From the NCBI GenBank assembly GCA_021654395.1, contig AP024486.1:782440-814439 (forward strand): DNA of 32,000 nt, read 5' to 3'. Positions within the stretch are counted from its first letter, which is position 1. Every line of letters starts with the position of its first letter. Below are positions 9,805 to 31,253 of this stretch, piece by piece. The position numbers and the translations under genes were made by a program. This DNA comes from Candidatus Saccharimonadota bacterium (lineage in GTDB: Archaea; Micrarchaeota; Micrarchaeia; Micrarchaeales; Micrarchaeaceae). The notes beneath the pieces were generated by a model. It saw nothing but the letters and a program-made list of their open reading frames with translations, was not told the DNA's origin and ran no database searches.

Positions 9805-10806
9805 TTGAACACTAATAAAAGCCTAAGGAACTCTAATTTTAAGGACCCATCACCCTTCGAAAAGACTGTTGCTGAACTATTTAAAAATCATTACGTAAAA
9901 GATAGTATAACACTAAAGAGAACAAACGATTATATAGAGACATCTGTAGATCTTAAAGATAAGTTACTAGAGAGGTTAATGCAAGATCATATAATAAAAG
10001 GCGTTCTCTACATCATGATTGCCTACGAAGCTTATAAGCATCTCTTCCATATCTATTCTAGTAAGAAGAAAGACTCTAGAGCGGAATTTAAGGGATTCTT
10101 AAGGGATCTTGAATGGACTGTATCGCAAGGTTATATTGAAGATAAAGAAGCTAAAAAGAGTAAAGGAAATAAGAAGAGGAATAAAGGGAATAATAAAAGA
10201 AGGGCTAACTTAAATATAGATGAGCTGCTTAAGTTTTACGGGTTCGATAATAAAGCAATACCTTTAATATTAGAATCAGAGCTTAATTATTTTGGAAGAG
10301 TTTTATCTAGAAAGAGTGAGGAGGAACTTAGGAAGGTAGCAAATTCTCTATTTAAGACTTTAAATAAGTACAATCCAGATTTCTTAGTATTTGATCCTAA
10401 AGAGATTAGTGACCCCTCATTAATAAGAATAGATGAAGACCTCTTAAAGCATCTAAAGCCATATACGATATTAGAAGCCAAGGGCGAACCATACTTTATT
10501 GTTATGCTACTTAAGCTTGGTATGATTAAGAATACAGATATAAAGACGATCTATATATTTTTAGAGAGAGAGCCACCAGATGATCCTATAATAAAGGCTA
10601 TGCAGGAGAGCATCAATAGATTCCTAAAAGATAATAATGTCGATGAGGAGATGGTTATTAATAGACTTATAGATATAATAAGAGAGAACGGCATTGGTAT
10701 AAATATATACCTAGTAAAGAAAAGAGAGCATTTAGAGATGTATAATACTGATGGCTCTAATAAGATAGATCTAGATAATAGGTTTAAGTATAGCACTAGG
10801 CCCTAA
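9805..10806 (+). CDS. hypothetical protein with internal Lys/Arg/Asn-rich basic patch
   Basis: 333-codon ORF. TTG start 14 nt after the upstream stop, with GGTG 5 nt upstream. Basic stretch KKSKGNKKRNKGNNKRR. No catalytic motif recognised. Confidence 0.7.
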   Translation: MNTNKSLRNSNFKDPSPFEKTVAELFKNHYVKDSITLKRTNDYIETSVDLKDKLLERLMQDHIIKGVLYIMIAYEAYKHLFHIYSSKKKDSRAEFKGFLRDLEWTVSQGYIEDKEAKKSKGNKKRNKGNNKRRANLNIDELLKFYGFDNKAIPLILESELNYFGRVLSRKSEEELRKVANSLFKTLNKYNPDFLVFDPKEISDPSLIRIDEDLLKHLKPYTILEAKGEPYFIVMLLKLGMIKNTDIKTIYIFLEREPPDDPIIKAMQESINRFLKDNNVDEEMVINRLIDIIRENGIGINIYLVKKREHLEMYNTDGSNKIDLDNRFKYSTRP

Positions 10807-11678
10807 TGCGTCTTGTAGTTAATTATTCCTACTTCTACTACAATGCATCTGCTATTTATGTAATAGATATTACTTGGATTAAATATAGTCACTGGAGTCA
10901 CTGGGCTCCTTTCTATAACCACCGGGTTGAATGAGACGTCTTTCGAAGCCACTTGATTAGAGACTGCTCCAGAGTAGTATACTGCATCTGTCTTATTTAA
11001 TGATGCAGGATTACTTGTATTTCTTATCTGAGAATTAATCGCAAGACCACCTAAAGTATTCCTTTCTACTACTCCATATGTAATTAAATATAAAGGATGA
11101 TAATAAGGGACTGCGCAAGATGTTGTAGCATTTAAGGAATAAGCAATCCATAGATATCCATGAAACTGTGTTCCTTGTGGTGGAAAGTATGTATCATTTG
11201 CTGATACATTATATTGAAACAGGCCAAGATTACCGAATATTGTAAGATTTGCAGAGTAGATATTACCACCGACCATATCAGGCATATATGTATAGTATGG
11301 ATAGTAAGGATCAAATGTTGAAGGTGTATAATATAGATTTACATTAGATCCGTTCAGACTCTGATTAGTTGTTATAAAAACTATTGGATTATACCATGTA
11401 TTTGTAGTTAGCTGACCAAGATGTAGTATCTCTAACTCTCCATTGGATGTATTCACTTTAAAATAATAGAGATAATGCGTTGTTATATGCCTAGTAAAAG
11501 CTATCCCATTACAGATAAATTGTGAGGATGTAATACAGACATCTCCAGCATTTGTATTGAATACTCCTAATAGCACTAATGCTATTAGAACTACTGCTAT
11601 TATCAAGAATGCCCAACCGTATGTTATTAGGTACTCCATTGATGATTGTAGCTTTATCATTATGATCAGTTTATACAT
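10803..11678 (-). CDS. archaeal class III signal peptide (type IV pilin-like) surface protein
   Basis: N-terminus MIKLQSSMEYLITYGWAFLIIAVVLIALVLLGVF matches the QxxMEYLxTYGWA prepilin-like motif. It is followed by CITSSQFICN and many N-x-S/T sequons. An alternative start lies at 11660. Confidence 0.8.
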   Translation of the reverse strand: MYKLIIMIKLQSSMEYLITYGWAFLIIAVVLIALVLLGVFNTNAGDVCITSSQFICNGIAFTRHITTHYLYYFKVNTSNGELEILHLGQLTTNTWYNPIVFITTNQSLNGSNVNLYYTPSTFDPYYPYYTYMPDMVGGNIYSANLTIFGNLGLFQYNVSANDTYFPPQGTQFHGYLWIAYSLNATTSCAVPYYHPLYLITYGVVERNTLGGLAINSQIRNTSNPASLNKTDAVYYSGAVSNQVASKDVSFNPVVIERSPVTPVTIFNPSNIYYINSRCIVVEVGIINYKTH

Positions 11679-19613: not shown

Positions 19614-20306
19614 ATGATATTTATGAAGGAGTTTCTTATTGTTGCACATAGAGGTGCAAGCGCTTATGCAAAAGAGAATACTTTAGAGGCTTATAGACTT
19701 GCTATAGAGCAGCATGCAAATGCTATAGAGATAGATGTAAGACTTACAAAGGATAACAAAGCAATATGCTTCCATGATGAAACATTAAGATCGTTTGGCA
19801 TTAATATGAAGCCAGAGGAGATAATGCTTGATTCTATAAAAGATCTTATAGAAAATGATGAGATTGCTTTATTAGATGACGCTTTAGATCTGATAAGAGA
19901 TAAGACATATGTACTATTTGATGTTAGAGATGATAAGGTAGCTGGGTATATCTTAGATAGTATAAGCAAGAATGAGCTTAAGAGAGTATATATAATAAGT
20001 GGAAGAGACTATATTCTTAAAGAAGTAAGAGAGCTAGATGATAAAGTAAAGCTCGGCTTTTGGTATTTCAGATATAGCAACTTAATTAATCTTATAGAAG
20101 AGCTTAATATAGAGCTTATAAAGCCAAATTATAGAGTATGCCATAAGAACGATATAGAAAGGTTTCATAAGCTAAATAGAAAGGTATTAACATGGGTTAT
20201 AAATAACAAAGAAGACATGCAGAGATTTATTGAATATGGAATAGATGGAATAGTTACTGACGATCCAAAGCTACTATACAATACATTAAGACAAACTCTA
20301 TTGTAA
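19614..20306 (+). CDS. glycerophosphodiester phosphodiesterase (GDPD family)
   Basis: VAHRGAS...ENTLEAY...AIEIDVRLTKDNKAICFHDETL catalytic region. Confidence 0.85.
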   Translation: MIFMKEFLIVAHRGASAYAKENTLEAYRLAIEQHANAIEIDVRLTKDNKAICFHDETLRSFGINMKPEEIMLDSIKDLIENDEIALLDDALDLIRDKTYVLFDVRDDKVAGYILDSISKNELKRVYIISGRDYILKEVRELDDKVKLGFWYFRYSNLINLIEELNIELIKPNYRVCHKNDIERFHKLNRKVLTWVINNKEDMQRFIEYGIDGIVTDDPKLLYNTLRQTLL

Positions 20307-20918
20307 CTGCTTTATAACTGTCTCAGTGACATTATATAATATGCTGCTTGCTTGTGTAGCAGATGAGTTATATCTATTAGATGATACTGTTGCAGTAATT
20401 AGATATCTATTTATCAAAGAAGTTACGGAGTAATATTCAGAACCCGCGATTAATAATTTAAATCCAGTTGTTCTTTGTGCTAATGGTATTGTTATATTAA
20501 AAGGCATTATTGTAGAGTTATATGTAACATTCGATATATTTTCAAATGCTTTTAATGATTCATTGTTATTATTATATTTTATTACTCTTAAAATTAAAGA
20601 ATAATTAGATGCATTGTATATATCTAATTCTCCATATAATGATCCATTATTTAAACCACTTGGTATCATTGATTGACTTAAAACATTAAATTGAGTTCTA
20701 TTTAATAAACCAAACGCCTTTGGAGGATCATATATATAATTGCTAGTATTAGTTATGTTGCTTGATATAGTAGTTGTTGTAATTTTTGTAGATGTAGTAT
20801 AAATTGTTGTTGAAATTTTGTTTTGATTTATACTTTTAAATGCATATAAAGCCGCTAGCAATATTATTACTATTATTAAGACTATAATTATTATTGATTT
20901 ATTATTCATATTCATCAT
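20298..20918 (-). CDS. N-terminally membrane-anchored, sequon-rich surface protein
   Basis: MMNMNNKSIIIIVLIIVIILLAALYAF anchor, followed by ~13 N-x-S/T sequons (hand count). The ATG at 20918 overlaps the TGA of the -1-frame ORF upstream (ATGA). The ORF-track start 20945 would give a 31-nt overlap. Confidence 0.7.
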   Translation of the reverse strand: MMNMNNKSIIIIVLIIVIILLAALYAFKSINQNKISTTIYTTSTKITTTTISSNITNTSNYIYDPPKAFGLLNRTQFNVLSQSMIPSGLNNGSLYGELDIYNASNYSLILRVIKYNNNNESLKAFENISNVTYNSTIMPFNITIPLAQRTTGFKLLIAGSEYYSVTSLINRYLITATVSSNRYNSSATQASSILYNVTETVIKQLQ

Positions 20919-21091
20919 CCTACTTGACAGCCAGATGGTTGGCATGTGTTACTATATGTAAGTGAACAACTGCCTTGGCTTGTACCGCTAACACAAGAGT
21001 AGAGGGTATAACAGTATACACCTGCACGTACACAGCTACCTTTGACACAAAAATCAAAAACTGTATAGCTTCCAGACGTACAGTAAGTACT
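20915..21091 (-). other. -1-frame continuation of the upstream pilin-like CDS encoding a second 8-Cys module
   Basis: The frame of ORF 20915..21226 reads STYCTSGSYTVFDFCVKGSCVRAGVYCYTLYSCVSGTSQGSCSLTYSNTCQPSGCQVG*. It has 8 Cys, as does the in-frame module upstream, and is preceded by the same kind of S/T linker. Confidence 0.6.
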
Positions 21092-22308
21092 GTTGTTGAT
21101 GAAGTTGATGTAGTCGATGTTGTAGATATAGAGGTTGTAGTAGAATAGCATACATAACCTGCTGTGATTCCACCAGGGCAGTGGTTTTGTGCTTGATAAG
21201 GGCAGCTTGAAGGGCAGCCAGAACATATAAATCTATGCTGTGCACAGCTGTATGAAGTCTCACCACAGCTACACACTGGCAGTGTTGAGAGTGATGAAGT
21301 TGACGAACTAGATGAAGTTGACGACGTTGAAGTTGTTGAAGAAGTCGATGTTGTAGAAGATGTAGAGGTTGTCGATGTAGTAGTTGTTGTAGTTGTAGAA
21401 GTTGTCGTAAAGGTAATTACCGTTGGACCCAGAGTTGACGTAGTCGTAGTAGTTGTAGAGGTTGTAGATATAGTAGGAATTGTTGTAGATGTAGAAGAGG
21501 TAGATGTAGAGGTTGTTGGAGATGTTGTAGATGTAGATGATGTAGAAGTTGATGTTGTTGGAGATGTTGTAGAAGTTGATGTTGTTGGAGATGTTGTAGA
21601 TGTAGATGATGTGGATGTAGATAATGAAGACGTTGTTGATGTAGTAGATGTAGTTGTCTGTATAGAGGTTGTTGAGATACTTGTAGATAAAGATGTTGTT
21701 GCTGATGTAGATATAGATGTAGTTGGTATAGATGTAGTAGAGCTTGTTGTAGTTATGCTAACAGCTGCTGTATGCAGTGTAAGAGATATAGCTGCGCTAT
21801 TAGGAAATCCGTTATTAAGATCATAATACTTTATAACAACATATCCTGAGTATAATGAGCCTGTTGGCTGAGCATATAGCTTATTATTATAATAGCAGTT
21901 AACCTCTAGATCTACTGACTGACCTGGTGCTAATGTAACCTGTGGGGTTACATTCTGAAATACTAGATTGTTTTGACTATTTGAGCATGCTATAGCTGTT
22001 ATATTTATTGGATACTGCTCATTAGATGTTATCCTTACTAATGCTCTGCCCGAAGTATTCAGCAATGCTTCGTTGCATTGAAAGCTGCTCTGAGCTATAC
22101 ATGAATTTGATACAAATGATGTAGAGTTAAATACATGCAGATAGAGCAGGATAACAAGTATAGCTGCTATTATTATTAATGCCCATCCATAAGTTATTAA
22201 GAAATCTAGTGCTGCTTGCTGCCTTTTATTCTTATTGCTAACTCTTGCTTTAATGCTATATGCTTTATTCTTATTATTTATGCTTCTTGCTTTACTGCTT
22301 CTTCTCAT
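20920..22308 (-). CDS. class III signal peptide (pilin-like) protein with long Ser/Thr tract and Cys-rich module; 3' end probably frame-disrupted
   Basis: RQQAALDFLITYGWALIIIAAILVILLYLHVF prepilin-like N-terminus, then NSCIAQSSFQCN. S/T tract spans residues ~184-343. The 8-Cys module is CSCGETSYSCAQHRFICSGCPSSCPYQAQNHCPGGITAGYVC. The last 56 residues in this frame are Cys-free and atypical. Confidence 0.75.
   Translation of the reverse strand: MRRSSKARSINNKNKAYSIKARVSNKNKRQQAALDFLITYGWALIIIAAILVILLYLHVFNSTSFVSNSCIAQSSFQCNEALLNTSGRALVRITSNEQYPINITAIACSNSQNNLVFQNVTPQVTLAPGQSVDLEVNCYYNNKLYAQPTGSLYSGYVVIKYYDLNNGFPNSAAISLTLHTAAVSITTTSSTTSIPTTSISTSATTSLSTSISTTSIQTTTSTTSTTSSLSTSTSSTSTTSPTTSTSTTSPTTSTSTSSTSTTSPTTSTSTSSTSTTIPTISTTSTTTTTTSTLGPTVITFTTTSTTTTTTTSTTSTSSTTSTSSTTSTSSTSSSSSTSSLSTLPVCSCGETSYSCAQHRFICSGCPSSCPYQAQNHCPGGITAGYVCYSTTTSISTTSTTSTSSTTVLTVRLEAIQFLIFVSKVAVYVQVYTVIPSTLVLAVQAKAVVHLHIVTHANHLAVK
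21280..21759 (-). repeat. Ser/Thr(/Pro)-coding imperfect tandem repeat tract
   Basis: The 19-nt core GTTGTTGGAGATGTTGTAG recurs at 21512, 21554 and 21581 (spacings of 42 and 27 nt) within a GT-rich plus strand. It encodes TSPTTSTSTSSTSTT-type units. Confidence 0.9.
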
Positions 22309-24928: not shown

Positions 24929-25762
24929 TTAATCTAGCTGCTCAAATGTGCTAAGATTTACGGCTACATGATAGTTAGATATGCTGCTTGGTAATCTATT
25001 ATAAGGGTTACTTATACCTTGCTTTAAGAATGCAATCTCTAATGTTAGATTCTGATTCTGCTTTAATGGCTCGTTTAAGAGTACATAAAAACTTGCAGAG
25101 CTTGATGTATTTGAGCAGCCAGATACACAAGTGCTTAGTAATGGTGTATAGTTATTTAAGAATACTATATTGCTTAAGCTGCTGCTCTCTATATCTGTAT
25201 AGTTCTTAGGATCTATAGTAAATGATACTGCCGCATCTGCTGGTATAATTGGATAATCTGTATCTTTTATGCTTATAAGCTGCAATGCTATGGCGCTTGT
25301 ATAGTTATCTTCTATATGAAGCTGCTTTATGAATAGATTGTCTGTTTGGTTTATATAAAGCATAGCATTATATATTACAGAGATCTTATAGAAGCGATTC
25401 TGATATATAGCAATTGATTGATTTATAATAGAGATATTATAGTCTAGCTGCTTACTAAGATTTTCTGTATACCTATGCATGCTCTGATTTATAGAGTTTG
25501 CTATAAGATACTGCGTAGTGCTATTTATCGGATAGTAGAAGTTATCTGCTACTGCTGAGTATATCGCGCTGGTAAGCATAGATCTTATATCGCTATATAT
25601 TAGATAGTAGCTACTACTAGAGTCTCTTAGCTGATATAATGCCTGCAGTGATTGACTTAGCAGTATATTCTGTAATGCGTATGTAATTATTAAGCTAAAT
25701 ATAATAATGAATATTATAAATATCGTTAAAGTAAAGACAAATCCTCTCTTCTTATAGATCAT
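24929..25762 (-). CDS. pilin-like protein (minor pilin candidate), sequon-rich
   Basis: N-terminus MIYKKRGFVFTLTIFIIFIIIFSLIITYAL: basic residues, Gly, then a hydrophobic helix, resembling G/FTL-type prepilin leaders. About 12 N-x-S/T sequons. It is the last gene of a 4-gene head-to-tail operon. Confidence 0.6.
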   Translation of the reverse strand: MIYKKRGFVFTLTIFIIFIIIFSLIITYALQNILLSQSLQALYQLRDSSSSYYLIYSDIRSMLTSAIYSAVADNFYYPINSTTQYLIANSINQSMHRYTENLSKQLDYNISIINQSIAIYQNRFYKISVIYNAMLYINQTDNLFIKQLHIEDNYTSAIALQLISIKDTDYPIIPADAAVSFTIDPKNYTDIESSSLSNIVFLNNYTPLLSTCVSGCSNTSSSASFYVLLNEPLKQNQNLTLEIAFLKQGISNPYNRLPSSISNYHVAVNLSTFEQLD

Positions 25763-25764
25763 AC

Positions 25765-26271
25765 CTATCCAACTCTATATATAAGAACCTTATAGGCATT
25801 ATTATTATAATAGACGTAGATCTCTGAGCCAGCTATAGTCTGATTTGCATATATAGATGATATACTCTGCTCCTCTAGGCTATTAAATCTAAGATTATAG
25901 TAGTAGCATGTACTATCTACGCATATTCCGTAGTATCTTGTATCTATTATATGCGTCTCTATATAAGCTATAGCTAGAGGATTATTATGCTGATTTAGAT
26001 ATACTAGAGCATATGCTATGCTGTAATATCCAGGAACATAAGTACCATTTATTATATATCCATCTTGATTATAAGAGTAGTTACAAGGCGCTATATAATT
26101 ACAAAAGTAGTATATCTGCTCATTTAGCTGACTTACATCTTGCTTTATATTTGAATAAGGAGTATTGTACTGCTGCTCTGCAAATGCTATAGCTACAGAT
26201 AATGCAGCCACTATAAGTGCTGTTACTATTAGGCTAAACAATGCATCTATACTGAATATTATTAGTTTCAT
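25765..26271 (-). CDS. pilin-like protein (minor pilin candidate)
   Basis: N-terminus MKLIIFSIDALFSLIVTALIVAALSVAIAFA parallels MKLQIYSLDIMVAL of the upstream gene. 1-2 nt gaps to its neighbours. Confidence 0.6.
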   Translation of the reverse strand: MKLIIFSIDALFSLIVTALIVAALSVAIAFAEQQYNTPYSNIKQDVSQLNEQIYYFCNYIAPCNYSYNQDGYIINGTYVPGYYSIAYALVYLNQHNNPLAIAYIETHIIDTRYYGICVDSTCYYYNLRFNSLEEQSISSIYANQTIAGSEIYVYYNNNAYKVLIYRVG

Positions 26272-26272
26272 A

Positions 26273-26806
26273 CTAATCCCACAGCTCTATATAAACCTCT
26301 ACAGGGTAGCTTCCAATATATGTAAGCCTTCTTTCTACATATACATCATTTGCATTCTTCGGCTTCTTTCCTATTGATATATTTATAGAGCTATTCTCCA
26401 TGCCTATTATATTGATATAGTAGTTATATTGAGAGCCAAGTGCCACTTGCGTCATAGAGTAATTAAGATTACTCATAGCTATAAGAGTATATAGCTTCTC
26501 TGGCATTATCGTATTATTGCTACCAAGTATCCCTGGAGTTATAAGAGGCCATTGCTGAGGATCACTTAGATTTACATAATCATACCAGTTGCTTGGATAT
26601 CCTTCAGAGAGTATATTGCTATATACAGATAACACAGAGTATGGAATCTCTGCCTGATTGTTATAGCTGTTGAATGAAAGATCTGTAGCTATAGAGTTAT
26701 AATAGAACATAATAAAAGTTAAGCTTATTGCAAATACGGCTAATGCAACCATTATATCCAAGCTATATATCTGTAGCTTCATGTACATCTTAATCAACAT
26801 CTCCAT
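26273..26806 (-). CDS. pilin-like protein (minor pilin candidate)
   Basis: MKLQIYSLDIMVALAVFAISLTFIMF leader and helix. Several candidate ATGs (26806, 26800, 26788, 26782); 26782 gives the short MKLQ leader and avoids overlap with the upstream stop at 26790. Confidence 0.6.
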   Translation of the reverse strand: MEMLIKMYMKLQIYSLDIMVALAVFAISLTFIMFYYNSIATDLSFNSYNNQAEIPYSVLSVYSNILSEGYPSNWYDYVNLSDPQQWPLITPGILGSNNTIMPEKLYTLIAMSNLNYSMTQVALGSQYNYYINIIGMENSSINISIGKKPKNANDVYVERRLTYIGSYPVEVYIELWD

Positions 26807-29453
26807 TATAATAGTAAACTTGTGGAATAGGATCTGATGCTATCTGTGATACTGCACTCTGATTCAATGCTGCATAGTATAGCTGAAGGTTTGATATGCT
26901 TCCATTAAATCCTCTGCCAACAATAATATTATTTATTAGGCCGCTTGATGAGCAGCTAGTCTGATTCTGGAGTAAGCCATTTATATATATTAAGCATACG
27001 CTACCACTATTTACAACTATTATATTATATAGATCTCTTGTATTCATCTTTAAACCATTATAGTATATGTTTAACGCCTTACCATTTATATTTAGAGCTA
27101 TGCTACCGTTATTCCAGTATGCTGTAAACATGCCTGGTAGATCTATAATCTGACACTCTGAGCTACATCCAAATGGATATATATCGAATGAAACGGTATA
27201 AGCGTTATGTATATCTGTAAGCATCCCCTCTGCTGGTATAGTTATATAATTGTTACTATTAAATACTGGAGCTAATACATCTGTATATCTGCTAGGAGAT
27301 TGTATATAAGAGAAGTTAACATTAGATGTAACTACTGTTCTTGGGTTAAAATAATCCGAAGCATTACCATCAAGTAGATACCATGCAACTGCGCCATAAC
27401 TGAGAGGGGCGTCTAATGGATTATTGTACAGATTATTCACCTGCAATGAATTTAATGATACGTTATATATCTGCAAGTTAGTTATATATCCCTTCATATA
27501 TTCTCCATTAAGCTGATCCGCACCTACAACTATATCTCCTGCGATATGCGTACCTACAAGACTACTTACATCCCTGCCTATTGAGTTACATATATTAGTT
27601 ATATTAGATAAGCTTCCATCTACATATAGAGACTGAAATGACTTATTTATATAATATGTAATCATATACCATCTATTATATGAGTAGATCTGTGGTGTAG
27701 ATGCAAGTATATATCTATTACCGTTATTAGGAACATAACCGTATATTATGCCATAAGTGTTATTTGCCAATGATGTAGAGTAAGCATAAATAACAAACTG
27801 ATTTGTGCTACCTGCTGAAAGTATTGGCTCTGAGTAGACATTACATATATACTTGTTAGATAAAGCGCCTTTCGGTATATTAATCCAAAGATTAATAGTA
27901 AAGTAGTTAGAGTTAAACTTATTGTTAAAAAGGTTTATTATATTATATCCAGTATCTATATAGTTAGAGCCCTTAAAGTCTGCAGCCAGTATAGGAGAGG
28001 TGTCTGTAGGTAGATTACTCCATATAGGATCAGTAAAGCTTCCATTAACATAGCCTGCTCTTAGATCATATACTATGCTTCCATAGCCCTCATCTAAAGG
28101 ATACCAACCTGCAAGATAGTCGTATAGAGATTCATATGGAAAAGCATTAAGCACAAGCCTCTCATAAGATAGATTACCTCCAGTTATAGAAAGATTGTAC
28201 TGATTTACTCCAGCTATAACAGATAGATTCTTAGAGCTACTATAGTTGAATGTACCATTTCCTATTACTCCATAATCTGTAAATAATGAGTTGTTGCTGC
28301 TATATCTAATTACTTCGATCTTCGCAAATGTTATATAGCTTAGTGAGCTCCCTGTGCCAGCAGATCCACTAATATAGTTTAAGAGGTTACCATCTAGATT
28401 AAACCAGTCTACAAGATTGCTACTAAACTGCTCATAAAATGGATTAAATGAAGGCCCATTATTATATAATAGACTTATACTATTACCTGGTAGAGGTATA
28501 TTGTATATCTGAATATCTGCTATATTACCATTATAGTTAGATGATGCATTGTATGTAAGTAGGTATAGCTGATTTCCTTTTGGTAATCTAAAGCCAGCTA
28601 CTATACGTTGAGCTATTAGCTTTCCATTAAAGTAGAGATCTAATATACCGTTATTATAAACTATCCCTATATTAGATAAGCTGCCGTATGGCTCATTAAT
28701 AGTATATTGATAGCTTAGATCTCCGAATGTTAGATATAAGTTGTTGCCTTTTAGTATAACTAATGTCTGGCACTGCTGCGGATCATTAGCTACGCAGCTA
28801 CTGCTATTAGATATAGTAATTAAAGGACCGTTATTATCTGGGCTTTGCAGTACCCAGAATGTTATTGAGAACTCTGTTGTTTGGTTAGTTATAGAGCTTA
28901 GTGGCTCTTCTATATATCCATTGTTAGATATATTTGCTAACCTTATTGCATAATTTATATAAGGTACTGCTGACGAGCTTGAATAGCTATTATACTGTAG
29001 CTGTAGATTATTTATATATAAAACCCCAAAGTGCTTCTCTATCCTTATAAAGCCAGATGATGCATTTATGATATATAAGCCGTTGCTAAGCTCTTCAGTT
29101 GAGTTTATTATTATGCCTCTAACAGGCGCATCAGAGTAAGCAGTAATCTGATTGTTACCTATATTTATAATACCCTCTATAAATCCATTCTTAGTTAAAG
29201 CTATTATTGGCTTATGACCATCTATCACATATAAAGGCATTTGTATATTTATATTTGAGTTAGATACTGCAGCAATATCTATATATGATGCTATAATATT
29301 AACATAAGACTGAAGAAGCTTAAGATCTCTATTTGCAACTATGCTGCTATCCTGTGCAGATATAAGTAAGAATATTATGGCGAATAGAGTTAGAGCTACC
29401 ATAGATATTATAAAAAACTCCAAAGCTATCTGAAGTCTGAATGCCTTAAGCAT
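26790..29453 (-). CDS. large prepilin-like surface protein with three LamG-like (concanavalin-A-like lectin) modules; putative filament-associated adhesin
   Basis: Leader MLKAFRLQIALEFFIISMVALTLFAIIFLLI. Three modules each open with a W(Y/F)xLD(G/E) segment and end with GxIxxxQ(I/L)Y...L...(LYNN). Track start 29471 is TTG; the ATG is at 29453. Confidence 0.75.
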   Translation of the reverse strand: MLKAFRLQIALEFFIISMVALTLFAIIFLLISAQDSSIVANRDLKLLQSYVNIIASYIDIAAVSNSNINIQMPLYVIDGHKPIIALTKNGFIEGIINIGNNQITAYSDAPVRGIIINSTEELSNGLYIINASSGFIRIEKHFGVLYINNLQLQYNSYSSSSAVPYINYAIRLANISNNGYIEEPLSSITNQTTEFSITFWVLQSPDNNGPLITISNSSSCVANDPQQCQTLVILKGNNLYLTFGDLSYQYTINEPYGSLSNIGIVYNNGILDLYFNGKLIAQRIVAGFRLPKGNQLYLLTYNASSNYNGNIADIQIYNIPLPGNSISLLYNNGPSFNPFYEQFSSNLVDWFNLDGNLLNYISGSAGTGSSLSYITFAKIEVIRYSSNNSLFTDYGVIGNGTFNYSSSKNLSVIAGVNQYNLSITGGNLSYERLVLNAFPYESLYDYLAGWYPLDEGYGSIVYDLRAGYVNGSFTDPIWSNLPTDTSPILAADFKGSNYIDTGYNIINLFNNKFNSNYFTINLWINIPKGALSNKYICNVYSEPILSAGSTNQFVIYAYSTSLANNTYGIIYGYVPNNGNRYILASTPQIYSYNRWYMITYYINKSFQSLYVDGSLSNITNICNSIGRDVSSLVGTHIAGDIVVGADQLNGEYMKGYITNLQIYNVSLNSLQVNNLYNNPLDAPLSYGAVAWYLLDGNASDYFNPRTVVTSNVNFSYIQSPSRYTDVLAPVFNSNNYITIPAEGMLTDIHNAYTVSFDIYPFGCSSECQIIDLPGMFTAYWNNGSIALNINGKALNIYYNGLKMNTRDLYNIIVVNSGSVCLIYINGLLQNQTSCSSSGLINNIIVGRGFNGSISNLQLYYAALNQSAVSQIASDPIPQVYYYNGDVD

Positions 29454-29478
29454 AAGATCATCAAGCAACAATTAATTA

Positions 29479-29486
29479 TTTATAAA
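29479..29486. promoter_or_regulatory. palindromic TATA-like box TTTATAAA in a short divergent intergenic region
   Basis: It lies ~30 nt from the minus-strand ATG (29453) and ~36 nt from the plus-strand ATG (29519). The sequence is its own reverse complement. Confidence 0.3.
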
Positions 29487-29518
29487 TTGTTAAACAAAGT
29501 TTAAAATAAGATAGTATT

Positions 29519-29857
29519 ATGAAAAGGAGCACTTTACTGAGAATGCTAAAGAGAGAAGGATTATCTAGATTTGAGATAGCAGTACTCCTTTATGTTTATG
29601 ATAATAAGGATAAAGATCTAATTACATATAAGGAGATTGCAGAGGCTATAGGCCATAGTAGAGCTTATAGAGCCGTAGGCAATGCGTTGCACAGGAATCC
29701 CTTTCCAGAGGTAATACCGTGCTATAAGGTAATAAGGTCTGATATGCATATAGGCTCATACGTTAATGGTAGAGATTCTAAAAGGATCTTACTACAAAGA
29801 TCTCTTAATGGTAAAGGTTATAAGATAATAAACGATAGAGTTATAAAGATAAGCTGA
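29519..29857 (+). CDS. MGMT-family (O6-alkylguanine-DNA alkyltransferase C-terminal domain-like) small protein with variant active-site motif
   Basis: ITYKEIAEAIGHSRAYRAVGNALHRNPFPEVIPCYKVIRSDMHIGSY aligns to the MGMT wHTH/active-site region. The canonical IPCHRV is IPCYKV here, and there is no N-terminal domain. Confidence 0.7.
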   Translation: MKRSTLLRMLKREGLSRFEIAVLLYVYDNKDKDLITYKEIAEAIGHSRAYRAVGNALHRNPFPEVIPCYKVIRSDMHIGSYVNGRDSKRILLQRSLNGKGYKIINDRVIKIS

Positions 29858-29930
29858 GATATAGCTATAGGTAAGAGATATAAATACTTGCTTAAAATTA
29901 AGATTAGATATAAAACATAGACTGATATAG

Positions 29931-31253
29931 ATGGATCTTCCTGATAATCTACTTGATATAGAAGATAGAATACTAGATGCAATAAAAGGCAGATTAACTG
30001 GGCTTAAGCCAGAAGAGAGAAGCGAGCTGATAAGAAACTTGTGCTATTCAATAGATCCGAATCTCTCTAAGGACGAGATCAAGCTTATAGAAGAGGATAT
30101 AATAGACTTTGGCTTTGTTAGGCCTCTTCTCAACGATGAGCATATAGAGGATATAATGATAAACAATACACAGAATATATTTGTATATGACAACAGAACT
30201 GGAAATAAGAAGATAGGGCAGAGATTTAAGGATCAGAAGGAGCTTATTAGATTTATAAAGAAGATGGAAGCCTATAATACAAGTGAGTATAATAATGGCC
30301 AGATCTTAGATATACATCTTCCAAATGGTAGTAGAGCCAATGTTGTAGCATCTCCATTAGGCTATAATGTTACAATAAGAAACTCAAAGCCAAAACCTTT
30401 TAGTATACTAGATCTAGTTAACTATGGAGAGCTAGACTATGGATTAGCAGCTAAGCTATGGATGTATACTGATGGATTTAATGTAAGACCTGCCAATATA
30501 CTAATAGGAGGTATGCCTGCATCTGGAAAGACAACACTACTAAATGCAATGTTCTCATTCTTTAGGCCGGAAGAGAGAATAATAACCATAGAAGAGACTT
30601 ATGAGCTAAATACAGAGACGCATGAGAACTGTGTCAGACTAGAGACAAATAATGAGCTAAGGCTCGTAGACCTTGTAAAGGCATCATTAAGAATGAGGCC
30701 GGATATGCTAATAATAGGAGAGGTTCGAGGAGAAGAGGCTATAGATATGATGACTGCTATGAATATAGGTAAGAACTGTATGGCGACTATACATGCATCC
30801 TCAGCAAGAGATGTTATAAAGAGATTACAGCATGCTCCTATGAATGTGCCTTATGATATACTACCTGCAATAGATGCTATAGTTATAGTTGCACCAACTT
30901 ATGATAAAGGAAAGATGCATAGAAGGATCGTACAAGTAGCTGAGATAGCAGGACTAGAGATGAATCAAGTACTGCTTTCAGATATATATACATTTGACTA
31001 TAAAACAAAGAAGGCTAGCCTTATAATGCCAGGTGTTACTTATAGAGATCTCTTATCAGAGGTATTAGGAATAACGCCACAGGAGTTCTTAGAGGAGGAG
31101 CAGGTAAGAGCAGCTATACTAGCAAGATGCAATGAGCTACATAAGACAGATATGAAAAGCATTAGCGACGTAGTAAAGGCTTATTATATAGATCCATATG
31201 CTACAATAAAAGAGCTAGGAATGCAAGGTGTAGAGCCAGTAATTGTTAGATAA
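29931..31253 (+). CDS. type II/IV secretion system family ATPase (archaeal PilB/FlaI/VirB11-like)
   Basis: LLNDEHIEDIMINNTQNIFV N-domain motif, Walker A GGMPASGKTT, Walker B/Asp box RMRPDMLIIGEVRGEEA, His box MATIHASSARD. Confidence 0.9.
   Translation: MDLPDNLLDIEDRILDAIKGRLTGLKPEERSELIRNLCYSIDPNLSKDEIKLIEEDIIDFGFVRPLLNDEHIEDIMINNTQNIFVYDNRTGNKKIGQRFKDQKELIRFIKKMEAYNTSEYNNGQILDIHLPNGSRANVVASPLGYNVTIRNSKPKPFSILDLVNYGELDYGLAAKLWMYTDGFNVRPANILIGGMPASGKTTLLNAMFSFFRPEERIITIEETYELNTETHENCVRLETNNELRLVDLVKASLRMRPDMLIIGEVRGEEAIDMMTAMNIGKNCMATIHASSARDVIKRLQHAPMNVPYDILPAIDAIVIVAPTYDKGKMHRRIVQVAEIAGLEMNQVLLSDIYTFDYKTKKASLIMPGVTYRDLLSEVLGITPQEFLEEEQVRAAILARCNELHKTDMKSISDVVKAYYIDPYATIKELGMQGVEPVIVR

Follow-up and report, generated by a model that had tools for sequence, protein, structure and literature searches.

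Four tandem prepilin-like genes of the cultured micrarchaeon ARM-1, one encoding a LamG-bearing candidate adhesin, fit the pilin/adhesin module of a Clade 1-like archaeal type IV pilus

In Clade 1 loci of archaeal type IV pili (T4P), a pair of TadC genes is accompanied by several minor pilins and by large LamG-like proteins (DUF2341) that are predicted to be tip adhesins, and archaeal pilins are commonly encoded in trans, away from the ATPase/TadC module (PMC4858521). System 1 has been reported in DPANN archaea (bioRxiv 10.64898/2026.04.22.720090, the 2026 preprint of Sivabalasarma and Albers). Mia14 ('Ca. Mancarchaeum acidiphilum'; Golyshina et al. 2017) was reported to have two T4P systems, of which one is of the Methanococci/Thermococci type, together with a single FlaK-like peptidase and an expanded set of LamG proteins, 'some linked to type IV pili loci' (PMC5498576). 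The class III signal type with Gln at +1 and Glu at +5 is known from EppA substrates of Methanococcus, and orphan PilB-like ATPases without an adjacent PilC are known from M. maripaludis, the Sulfolobales and H. volcanii (PMC4371748). Cells of the cultured Micrarchaeon ARM-1 ('Ca. Microcaldus variisymbioticus') show fibrous links to their host and thin filaments 'that could represent archaeal pili' (PMC8784108, PMC11329633). Here we describe four tandem genes in a 32,000-nucleotide (nt) stretch of the ARM-1 genome (contig AP024486.1, positions 782,440 to 814,439; hereafter the window), the first of which encodes a large protein annotated ARM1_0846, which we call the giant. An initial annotation, made from the letters of the window, did not recognise the architecture as a named system. 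However, it fits the pilin/adhesin module of the Clade 1/System 1 (Epd-like) T4P, and a link between LamG proteins and T4P has been published for Mia14 (PMC5498576; PMC4858521). The four genes probably form the minor-pilin/adhesin module of a Clade 1/System 1-like pilus that is assembled by a machine encoded elsewhere in the genome.

The four genes (Table 1) are separated by gaps of 1, 1 and 2 nt when ATG starts are used, longer alternative starts giving a 17-nt overlap, and the ATG of the giant at 29453 is the start used by the public gene call. Together they constitute one operon (24929-29453) of four prepilin-like proteins, that is, proteins with class III signal peptides. Their close packing on the minus strand, and the short basic leader and hydrophobic helix with which each protein begins, had been noticed in the initial annotation and were confirmed from the open reading frames (ORFs) and N-termini. 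The window is A+T-rich, with about 33% GC, and the operon (GC 0.32-0.34) is like the rest of it. A foreign origin of the operon was considered, and the base composition gives no sign of one.

The giant begins MLKAFR-LQIALEFFIISMVAL and matches Pfam Laminin_G_3 (E 2.7e-29) over three stretches, the best spanning residues 508-678. An AlphaFold2 (AF2) model built with a 36-sequence family alignment (mean predicted local distance difference test score, pLDDT, of 68) contains a single 61-residue N-terminal helix, followed by a small β domain, with strands from residue 70, and then by jelly-roll modules. Within the helix, block pLDDT values range from 62 to 88, with 88 over residues 11-30. The top Foldseek matches of the model are neurexin LNS, laminin LG and botulinum toxin (BoNT) receptor-binding domains, with E values of 1e-15 to 1e-9 and a probability of 1.00 for the neurexin and laminin matches. 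Because the model combines this helix with jelly-roll domains of such kinds, the giant is a pilin-type N-terminus joined to receptor-binding-type domains. It is a candidate adhesin subunit, for which ligand binding is predicted. The three lectin-type modules first read from the sequence are borne out by the profile hidden Markov model (HMM) search, and their fold also by the structure search.

To define the giant family we used a full HMMER scan of 1.84 billion representatives, which returned 152 homologs at E<=1e-10. Most of these are 880-1140 aa long and align from residue ~6 to the C-terminus. A word-indexed search with the giant sequence alone found no match besides the giant itself, while the same search with the family profile found one true relative, P0271. 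The giant had no match among PDB sequences.

ORF maps were drawn for 32 related loci from a metagenome scan with the giant family profile and for one locus (L118) from a protein look-up. The gene order giant-gene 2-gene 3-gene 4 recurs wherever the contig extends, with tight spacing and family-specific N-terminal motifs, and one of the related metagenomic contigs carrying the operon was shown to be micrarchaeal. In these relatives gene 2 encodes a protein of ~180-190 aa with the N-terminus [KR][AG]-QFWSFD (and a Leu variant at -1), gene 3 a LamG protein of 580-770 aa beginning K-G-F[VI]FT[LI]DA[VIL]F[AS]L, and gene 4 a LamG protein of 640-1500 aa beginning [KR]G-[VILF].[LF]TL, typically K-G-[VIL]LLTL. 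Where the giant is of a ~1100-aa subtype, one more pilin gene (~157 aa, QSSFELLITLSFGLAIL) lies immediately upstream of it. A convergent T2SSF platform gene lies past gene 4 in 10/10 related loci that reach that far, and 7 of those 10 also show another T2SSF gene, an accessory gene (~210-240 aa) and a T2SSE ATPase of ~505 aa whose N-terminus is complete and FlaI-like. The two platform proteins are of half size. Two of these loci, L104 and L106, each encode two ~330-370-aa PF00482 proteins (E 1e-14 to 1e-16) and a 504/505-aa PF00437 ATPase. A lack of linkage between homologs of the four genes and any secretion ATPase would have spoken against a filament; since the homologs in other genomes do occur together with a secretion ATPase and platform proteins, that objection falls away.

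Other genes near the related operons were also recorded. Operons of the ~1100-aa-giant type lie near a gene for an exosortase/archaeosortase-like protein with nine transmembrane segments (PF09721, E 2e-8 to 3e-10; L086 101-1624(-), L111 5114-6634(-) and L103 5942-7471(-)), and a CBS-domain protein with an S30AE-like C-terminus is encoded directly upstream of their small extra pilin gene. In another uncultured archaeon (L015), tandem small pilin-like genes at 19945-20863(-), with KGQ-IFSTD and KGQ-LSLD N-termini, lie ~9 kb from a 515-aa T2SSE ATPase, which suggests that the gene-2-type motif (Q-x-[FW]-S-x-D) is not confined to Micrarchaeota.

Gene-family profiles from the related loci were then searched against all ORFs of the window. 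Gene 2 of ARM-1 (N-terminus MYMKLQIYSLDIMVALAVF, motif KL-QIYSLD) matched the gene 2 family HMM over its full length (E 9.8e-40, 128.6 bits) and by this measure is a small pilin-like, full-length ortholog of that family; the family profile had no meaningful match among PDB sequences. Gene 3 (N-terminus MKLIIFSIDALFSLIV / KLIIFSIDALFSLIV, motif KL-IIFSIDALFSLIV) matched the N-terminal HMM of the gene 3 family over residues 1-40 only (E 1.1e-3) and had no detectable homology to that family beyond residue 40. On this thin basis it may be the counterpart, by position and N-terminal motif, of the LamG gene 3 family, with the LamG part missing in ARM-1. Gene 4 (N-terminus MIYKKRG-FVFTLTIFII, motif RG-FVFTLTIF) matched the gene 4 family HMM (E 9.9e-13, HMM positions 10-253 against protein residues 4-222) and is homologous to the N-terminal ~250 aa of that LamG family, with a canonical KRG↓F class III site (arrows mark the putative cleavage site). 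The N-termini of genes 2, 3 and 4 agree with the family motifs of the relatives position by position, while none of the three had a Pfam or NCBIfam match.

Genes 3 and 4 of ARM-1 encode 168 and 277 aa, compared to about 730 and 640-1500 aa in relatives. Both are short and have lost their LamG portions; the ARM-1 operon is therefore a reduced version of the conserved module, and it is detached from the machine. The description of three small pilin-like genes beside the giant therefore holds for ARM-1 but not for its relatives, in which genes 3 and 4 encode LamG proteins of 580-1500 aa. The four ARM-1 proteins contain 10-12% charged residues and 1.8-4.3 N-glycosylation sequons (N-x-S/T) per 100 aa, compared to 27-34% and 0-0.5 in cytoplasmic proteins of the window. 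By composition they are of an extracellular type, as expected of acid-exposed, glycosylated surface proteins in a thermoacidophile.

The N-termini bear directly on the pilin assignment. Each family member, like each of the four ARM-1 proteins, has one N-terminal hydrophobic segment, and in the ARM-1 proteins ~20 hydrophobic residues directly follow the putative cleavage site. The giant family has the conserved N-terminus [KR]-[A/S/G or L]-Q-I-A-L-E-F-[LMI]-[IV]-V-Y-S-F-V-L. Among 123 representatives, 92% have K/R at position -2, 67% have A/S/G and 26% have Leu at position -1, and Gln at +1 is accompanied by Glu/Asp at +5 in 123/123. The same pattern of Gln at +1 and an acidic residue at +5 is found in 8/8 members of the small upstream pilin family. 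The gene 3 family has K-G↓F in 15/16 loci and the gene 4 family K-G↓ in 14/15. Overall, the families of the giant, gene 2 and gene 3 mostly have G/A/S at -1 (67-94%), with Leu as a recurrent variant. Within the giant family, members with Leu at -1 often have a three-residue leader, M-[KR]-L. In ARM-1, KRG↓F of gene 4 fits the usual pattern, while the giant (FRL↓Q), gene 2 (MKL↓Q) and gene 3 (MKL↓I) combine K/R at -2 with Leu at -1. Genes 2 and 3 have Asp at +6 and gene 4 has no acidic residue near +5. The proposal that all four genes are type IV pilin-like is upheld; among the ARM-1 proteins, the canonical -1 residue is present only in that of gene 4.

Known archaeal class III sites have G/A/S at -1, and to our knowledge Leu is not a residue that archaeal prepilin peptidases are known to accept at this position. 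Its presence may reflect an altered peptidase specificity or subunits that stay uncleaved. The Leu(-1) sites of the window are at 29432-29453 (giant), 26771-26788 (gene 2), 26260-26271 (gene 3) and 11650-11678, the last belonging to a further class-III-like protein (ORF 10803-11678, IKL↓Q). That protein and the one encoded at 20920-22308 are paralogous (BLASTP E 2.5e-11) and share N-termini of the form Q-x-[SA]-x-[ED]-[YF]-LITYGWA; the first could, speculatively, be a candidate filament subunit encoded in trans. The protein at 20920-22308 contains a Ser/Thr-rich stretch of ~250 aa, and its C-terminal part looks out of frame (overlapping ORF 20915-21226). After it follows a sequon-rich, N-terminally anchored protein of 215 aa (20298-20945).

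These data lead us to propose the following mechanism. The four proteins would insert into the membrane via their N-terminal helices and be trimmed at [KR]-[G/A/S/L]↓ by a FlaK/PibD/EppA-type peptidase, after which an ATPase/platform machine encoded elsewhere in the ARM-1 genome would extract them. By analogy with the bacterial minor-pilin/PilY1 or GspH-K sets, and with the predicted tip adhesins of archaeal Clade 1 pili, the resulting small complex would start a thin pilus or short pseudopilus and remain at its tip. The three LamG modules of the giant would then be exposed to bind a surface ligand, most plausibly glycans of the host (Metallosphaera) envelope, resulting in attachment. A tip position is suggested because the fixed four-gene set recurs across genomes, because the subunits are too large for a filament shaft, because the PilY1/GspH-K complexes and DUF2341 tip adhesins provide the analogy, and because microscopy shows fibrous host links and thin filaments on ARM-1. 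The neighbouring 440-aa ATPase and MGMT-like gene would be there through genome rearrangement rather than function. The core of the original proposal, a LamG-bearing, pilin-like candidate adhesin, is supported by the family N-termini, the AF2 helix, the LamG fold and the linkage of the family to a machine.

A number of observations weigh against this interpretation. Three of the four ARM-1 proteins have Leu rather than Gly/Ala/Ser at -1, and cleavage there is only predicted. The loss of LamG parts from genes 3 and 4 could mean that the module is decaying. No ARM-1 platform protein, cognate ATPase or prepilin peptidase was located in the window or the ~10 kb beyond the ATPase. The assignment of gene 3 draws on 40 residues and its position and on nothing else, and the single-sequence AF2 model of gene 2 is confident for helix 2-43 only, with an overall pLDDT of 44 that makes it unreliable. 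Finally, the tip-complex role and the proposed glycan binding are drawn by analogy.

The T2SSE/FlaI-like ATPase of 440 aa that stands next to the operon has afGspE, FlaI and CpaF as its nearest solved structures in the PDB, and it is without the first ~60-130 residues of FlaI. Its Walker A, Asp box, Walker B and His box are retained, with G199, K200, E221-E225, D258, G263-E269 and H288 invariant in 23 orthologs. A profile scan of the genome collection with this ATPase found at least 3 close orthologs. Orthologs of ~438 aa with 53-59% identity occur across Micrarchaeota, including ARMAN-2, with prefoldin-FtsY upstream and usually a convergent top6A-LonB downstream. No pilin, LamG or T2SSF gene lies within 10 kb of the orthologs in the 7 retrieved loci (6 independent contigs), and the ARM-1 ATPase likewise has no platform gene within 10 kb. 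On contig Ga0307374_10000001 (586,870 bp), the pilin operon and a T2SSF pair occupy 81-104 kb, and the 440-type ATPase is ~370 kb away at 461-474 kb, among its customary neighbours. These comparisons indicate that the 440-aa ATPase belongs to a conserved, stand-alone, platform-less family separate from the ~505-aa pilus ATPase. In ARM-1 top6A-LonB is kept on the right while the pilin operon and the MGMT-like gene occupy the place of prefoldin-FtsY on the left. Because the synteny on the right is kept, it is the pilin operon that appears to have moved beside the ATPase; because prefoldin-FtsY is replaced on the left and the MGMT-like gene is without a counterpart elsewhere, the adjacency is best described as a lineage-specific rearrangement. 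More distant homologs of this ATPase, ~40% identical, are found on contigs labelled Omnitrophota/Planctomycetales (L009-L011). In ARM-1 and other relatives LonB is 660-670 aa long; the LonB encoded on Ga0307374_10000001 (L119 9661-12741(-)) differs in having 1026 aa and an intein (Intein_splicing, LAGLIDADG_3).

This synteny bears on whether the neighbouring ATPase itself powers the four pilin-like proteins, as a self-contained reduced type IV filament whose platform has split off or been lost. The initial annotation had placed the ATPase in a split or reduced assembly module of this kind, a view encouraged by the adjacent, divergent arrangement in ARM-1, by the intact and family-invariant Walker A/B and His-box residues, and by the canonical machine missing beside ARM-1 gene 4, its place in relatives. 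However, the ATPase orthologs have a synteny of their own in 7/7 loci, the one on Ga0307374_10000001 is far from a pilin operon that has its own T2SSF pair, and in ARM-1 it is the operon that appears to have moved; we consider a self-contained system very unlikely. A bolder variant holds that ARM-1 lost the ATPase/two-TadC machine and that the relocated, slim module is processed at Leu(-1) and assembled with the platform-less 440-aa ATPase. If true, a cultured DPANN archaeon would possess a minimal filament for host attachment that breaks the rule of 'ATPase + platform + G/A(-1) peptidase site'. We give this variant little credence, and the same slight chance covers its weaker form, in which Micrarchaeota would have a novel prepilin-peptidase specificity, recognisable by Leu at -1.

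The four class III proteins could also make up a short, envelope-spanning stalk that presents the LamG domains with no long filament, as has been proposed for the bindosome-like display of Sulfolobus sugar-binding proteins and for 'functionalised' type IV filament machineries. Binding proteins with class III signals occur widely among archaea (bioRxiv 10.64898/2026.04.22.720090). Indeed, 3/4 subunits in relatives are very large (580-1500 aa) and hard to pack in a filament shaft, and the ~900-aa-type operons have no small major pilin. Such a pseudopilus differs from the favoured minor-pilin/adhesin module solely in filament length, on which the sequence does not separate the two, but the extra pilin gene at the ~1100-aa-giant loci and the thin filaments seen on ARM-1 cells (PMC11329633) speak for a filament, and we regard the stalk as unlikely. 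The Leu(-1) sites, the shortened genes 3 and 4 and the detachment from the machine would all be expected if the machine had been lost in ARM-1 and the four proteins were relics, that is, uncleaved signal-anchored surface proteins or genes on their way out. Yet all four reading frames are intact and tightly coupled, gene 2 is conserved over its full length, Leu(-1) recurs in the giant family even at loci with an adjacent machine (L104, L106), and further class-III-like proteins of the window share the same site, so that a relic seems to us highly improbable.

The presence of a divergent MGMT-like gene and a T2SSE ATPase, with no platform protein or peptidase in view, was confirmed by Pfam across the window and the ~10 kb beyond the ATPase (L001). 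No T2SSF or prepilin-peptidase Pfam match was found among the scanned candidate membrane proteins and unannotated ORFs of the window or among the unannotated ORFs of L001, and the called genes of L001 have no recorded T2SSF or prepilin-peptidase annotation. Two polytopic proteins beyond LonB (L001 12026-15335) were considered as a platform and rejected, as they have no T2SSF match and combine 6-7 transmembrane segments with a large outer domain. These adjacent proteins of 492 and 612 aa (L001 12026-13504(-) and 13497-15335(-), past the right end of the window) have no Pfam match, N-terminal transmembrane segments and sequon-rich outer domains, and are possibly glycosyltransferase-C-like or other envelope proteins.

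The MGMT-like protein consists of a C-terminal DNA_binding_1 domain only, in which PCYKV replaces the PCHRV active site, the Cys being kept and the His and Arg changed. It has neither the PCHR motif nor the N-terminal domain of an O6-alkylguanine-DNA alkyltransferase, and could be an inactive alkyltransferase, a DNA-damage sensor or a DNA-binding regulator. No counterpart was found at other giant loci or at orphan-ATPase loci, and the gene, which had first been counted as part of the locus, now stands outside it; a role as dedicated regulator of the operon was dropped, as no co-occurrence at other loci supports it. A 65-nt A+T-rich spacer separates it from the giant, and the palindromic TTTATAAA within the spacer is a possible shared promoter element, a weak indication in an A+T-rich genome.

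Table 1. Coordinates of the four-gene operon and other features of the window. LamG modules and helix are numbered by residues of the giant.
Feature	Positions	Strand	Description
Gene 4	24929-25762	minus	277 aa ORF
Gene 3	25765-26271	minus	168 aa ORF
Gene 2	26273-26788	minus	171 aa ORF; alternative 177 aa from 26806
Gene 1 (giant, ARM1_0846)	26790-29453	minus	887 aa ORF; alternative 893 aa from TTG at 29471
LamG module 3 of the giant	26823-27254	minus	about residues 734-877; family-profile matches and β-sandwich in the AF2 model
LamG module 2 of the giant	27291-27926	minus	about residues 510-721; family-profile matches and Pfam best stretch 508-678
LamG module 1 of the giant	28317-28925	minus	about residues 177-379; matched by LamG-containing family profiles
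N-terminal helix of the giant	29262-29444	minus	residues 4-64; pilin-type α1, hydrophobic first half; sequence LQIALEFFIISMVALTLFAIIFLLI
Palindromic TATA-like element TTTATAAA	29479-29486		in the 65-nt divergent spacer, 26-33 nt upstream of the ATG of the giant; read from sequence
MGMT-like protein	29519-29857	plus	112 aa; Pfam PF01035 (DNA_binding_1) E 4.8e-20; judged outside the module
T2SSE/FlaI-like ATPase	29931-31253	plus	440 aa; Pfam T2SSE E 2.4e-34 and NCBIfam; judged not the cognate motor
top6A	from 31258	minus	Pfam; convergent to the 440-aa ATPase
Further class-III-like protein	10803-11678	minus	291 aa; N-terminus IKL-QSSMEYLITYGWAF; weak N-terminal match to the small upstream-pilin HMM, E 1.8e-3
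Further class-III-like protein	20920-22308	minus	462 aa; N-terminus KRQ-QAALDFLITYGWAL; Ser/Thr-rich; paralog of 10803-11678

ARM-1 is one of few cultured DPANN archaea, and its fibrous links and thin filaments to the Metallosphaera host have had no genes tied to them; the supplements of the ARM-1 papers contain nothing on these four genes. ARM1_0846 and the next three genes are now four named candidates for a lectin-bearing attachment structure in a tractable DPANN co-culture, and their operon is conserved on related, apparently micrarchaeal contigs, where it is normally attached to a type IV pilus machine. This kind of system is already known, and the link of LamG proteins to T4P in Micrarchaeota was noted in 2017. 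What is new is that a conserved LamG operon of four pilin-like subunits is defined gene by gene, that a cultured organism is found to have it in a reduced form detached from the machine, and that the orphan ATPase is separated from the operon, which removes a misleading association. The number of LamG modules per subunit varies between genomes and is a plausible handle on host range, while the repeated occurrence of Leu at -1 is an unusual, testable feature of how the signal peptides are processed.

Among described systems, the 440-aa T2SSE protein is like the archaeal orphan PilB/FlaI-like ATPases in being without an adjacent platform gene, but members of its family have a shorter N-terminus than FlaI and keep the same housekeeping neighbours (FtsY, top6A, LonB) across Micrarchaeota. 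The operon itself is reminiscent of bacterial tip complexes (PilV/W/X/FimU with PilY1, and GspH/I/J/K), in which a constant group of about four pilin-like proteins, co-transcribed and including a large one, has been proposed to prime assembly and sit at the tip bearing the adhesin, a role that the ARM-1 proteins might share. Gene 4, like GspK, has no acidic residue near +5. By contrast, no sequence homology to the bacterial sets was detected, and unlike PilY1, which is itself not a pilin, the adhesin domains here are part of pilin-like chains.

The comparison with Mia14, which can be made by description only, places LamG genes tied to T4P loci in the same phylum as ARM-1, although the Mia14 paper gives no gene-by-gene account of a four-gene pilin-like operon and is silent on class III signals of LamG proteins. 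Clade 1/System 1, the Epd pilus type of Methanococcus maripaludis (Makarova, Koonin & Albers 2016), differs from the operon described here in several respects. Up to 3/4 subunits have LamG modules that follow a pilin N-terminus directly in the same chain, the leader often ends in Leu, and ARM-1 has no adjacent machine and shortened genes 3 and 4. No EppA-type or other prepilin peptidase was seen in the related loci. Membership in Clade 1 would follow from locus architecture and the Mia14 statement (PMC5498576) rather than from phylogeny. The fit is nonetheless evident in the relatives, which share with Clade 1/System 1 an ATPase with two TadC/T2SSF genes, class III proteins of the Gln+1/Glu+5 type, and large proteins of ConA/LamG type that are predicted to be tip adhesins.

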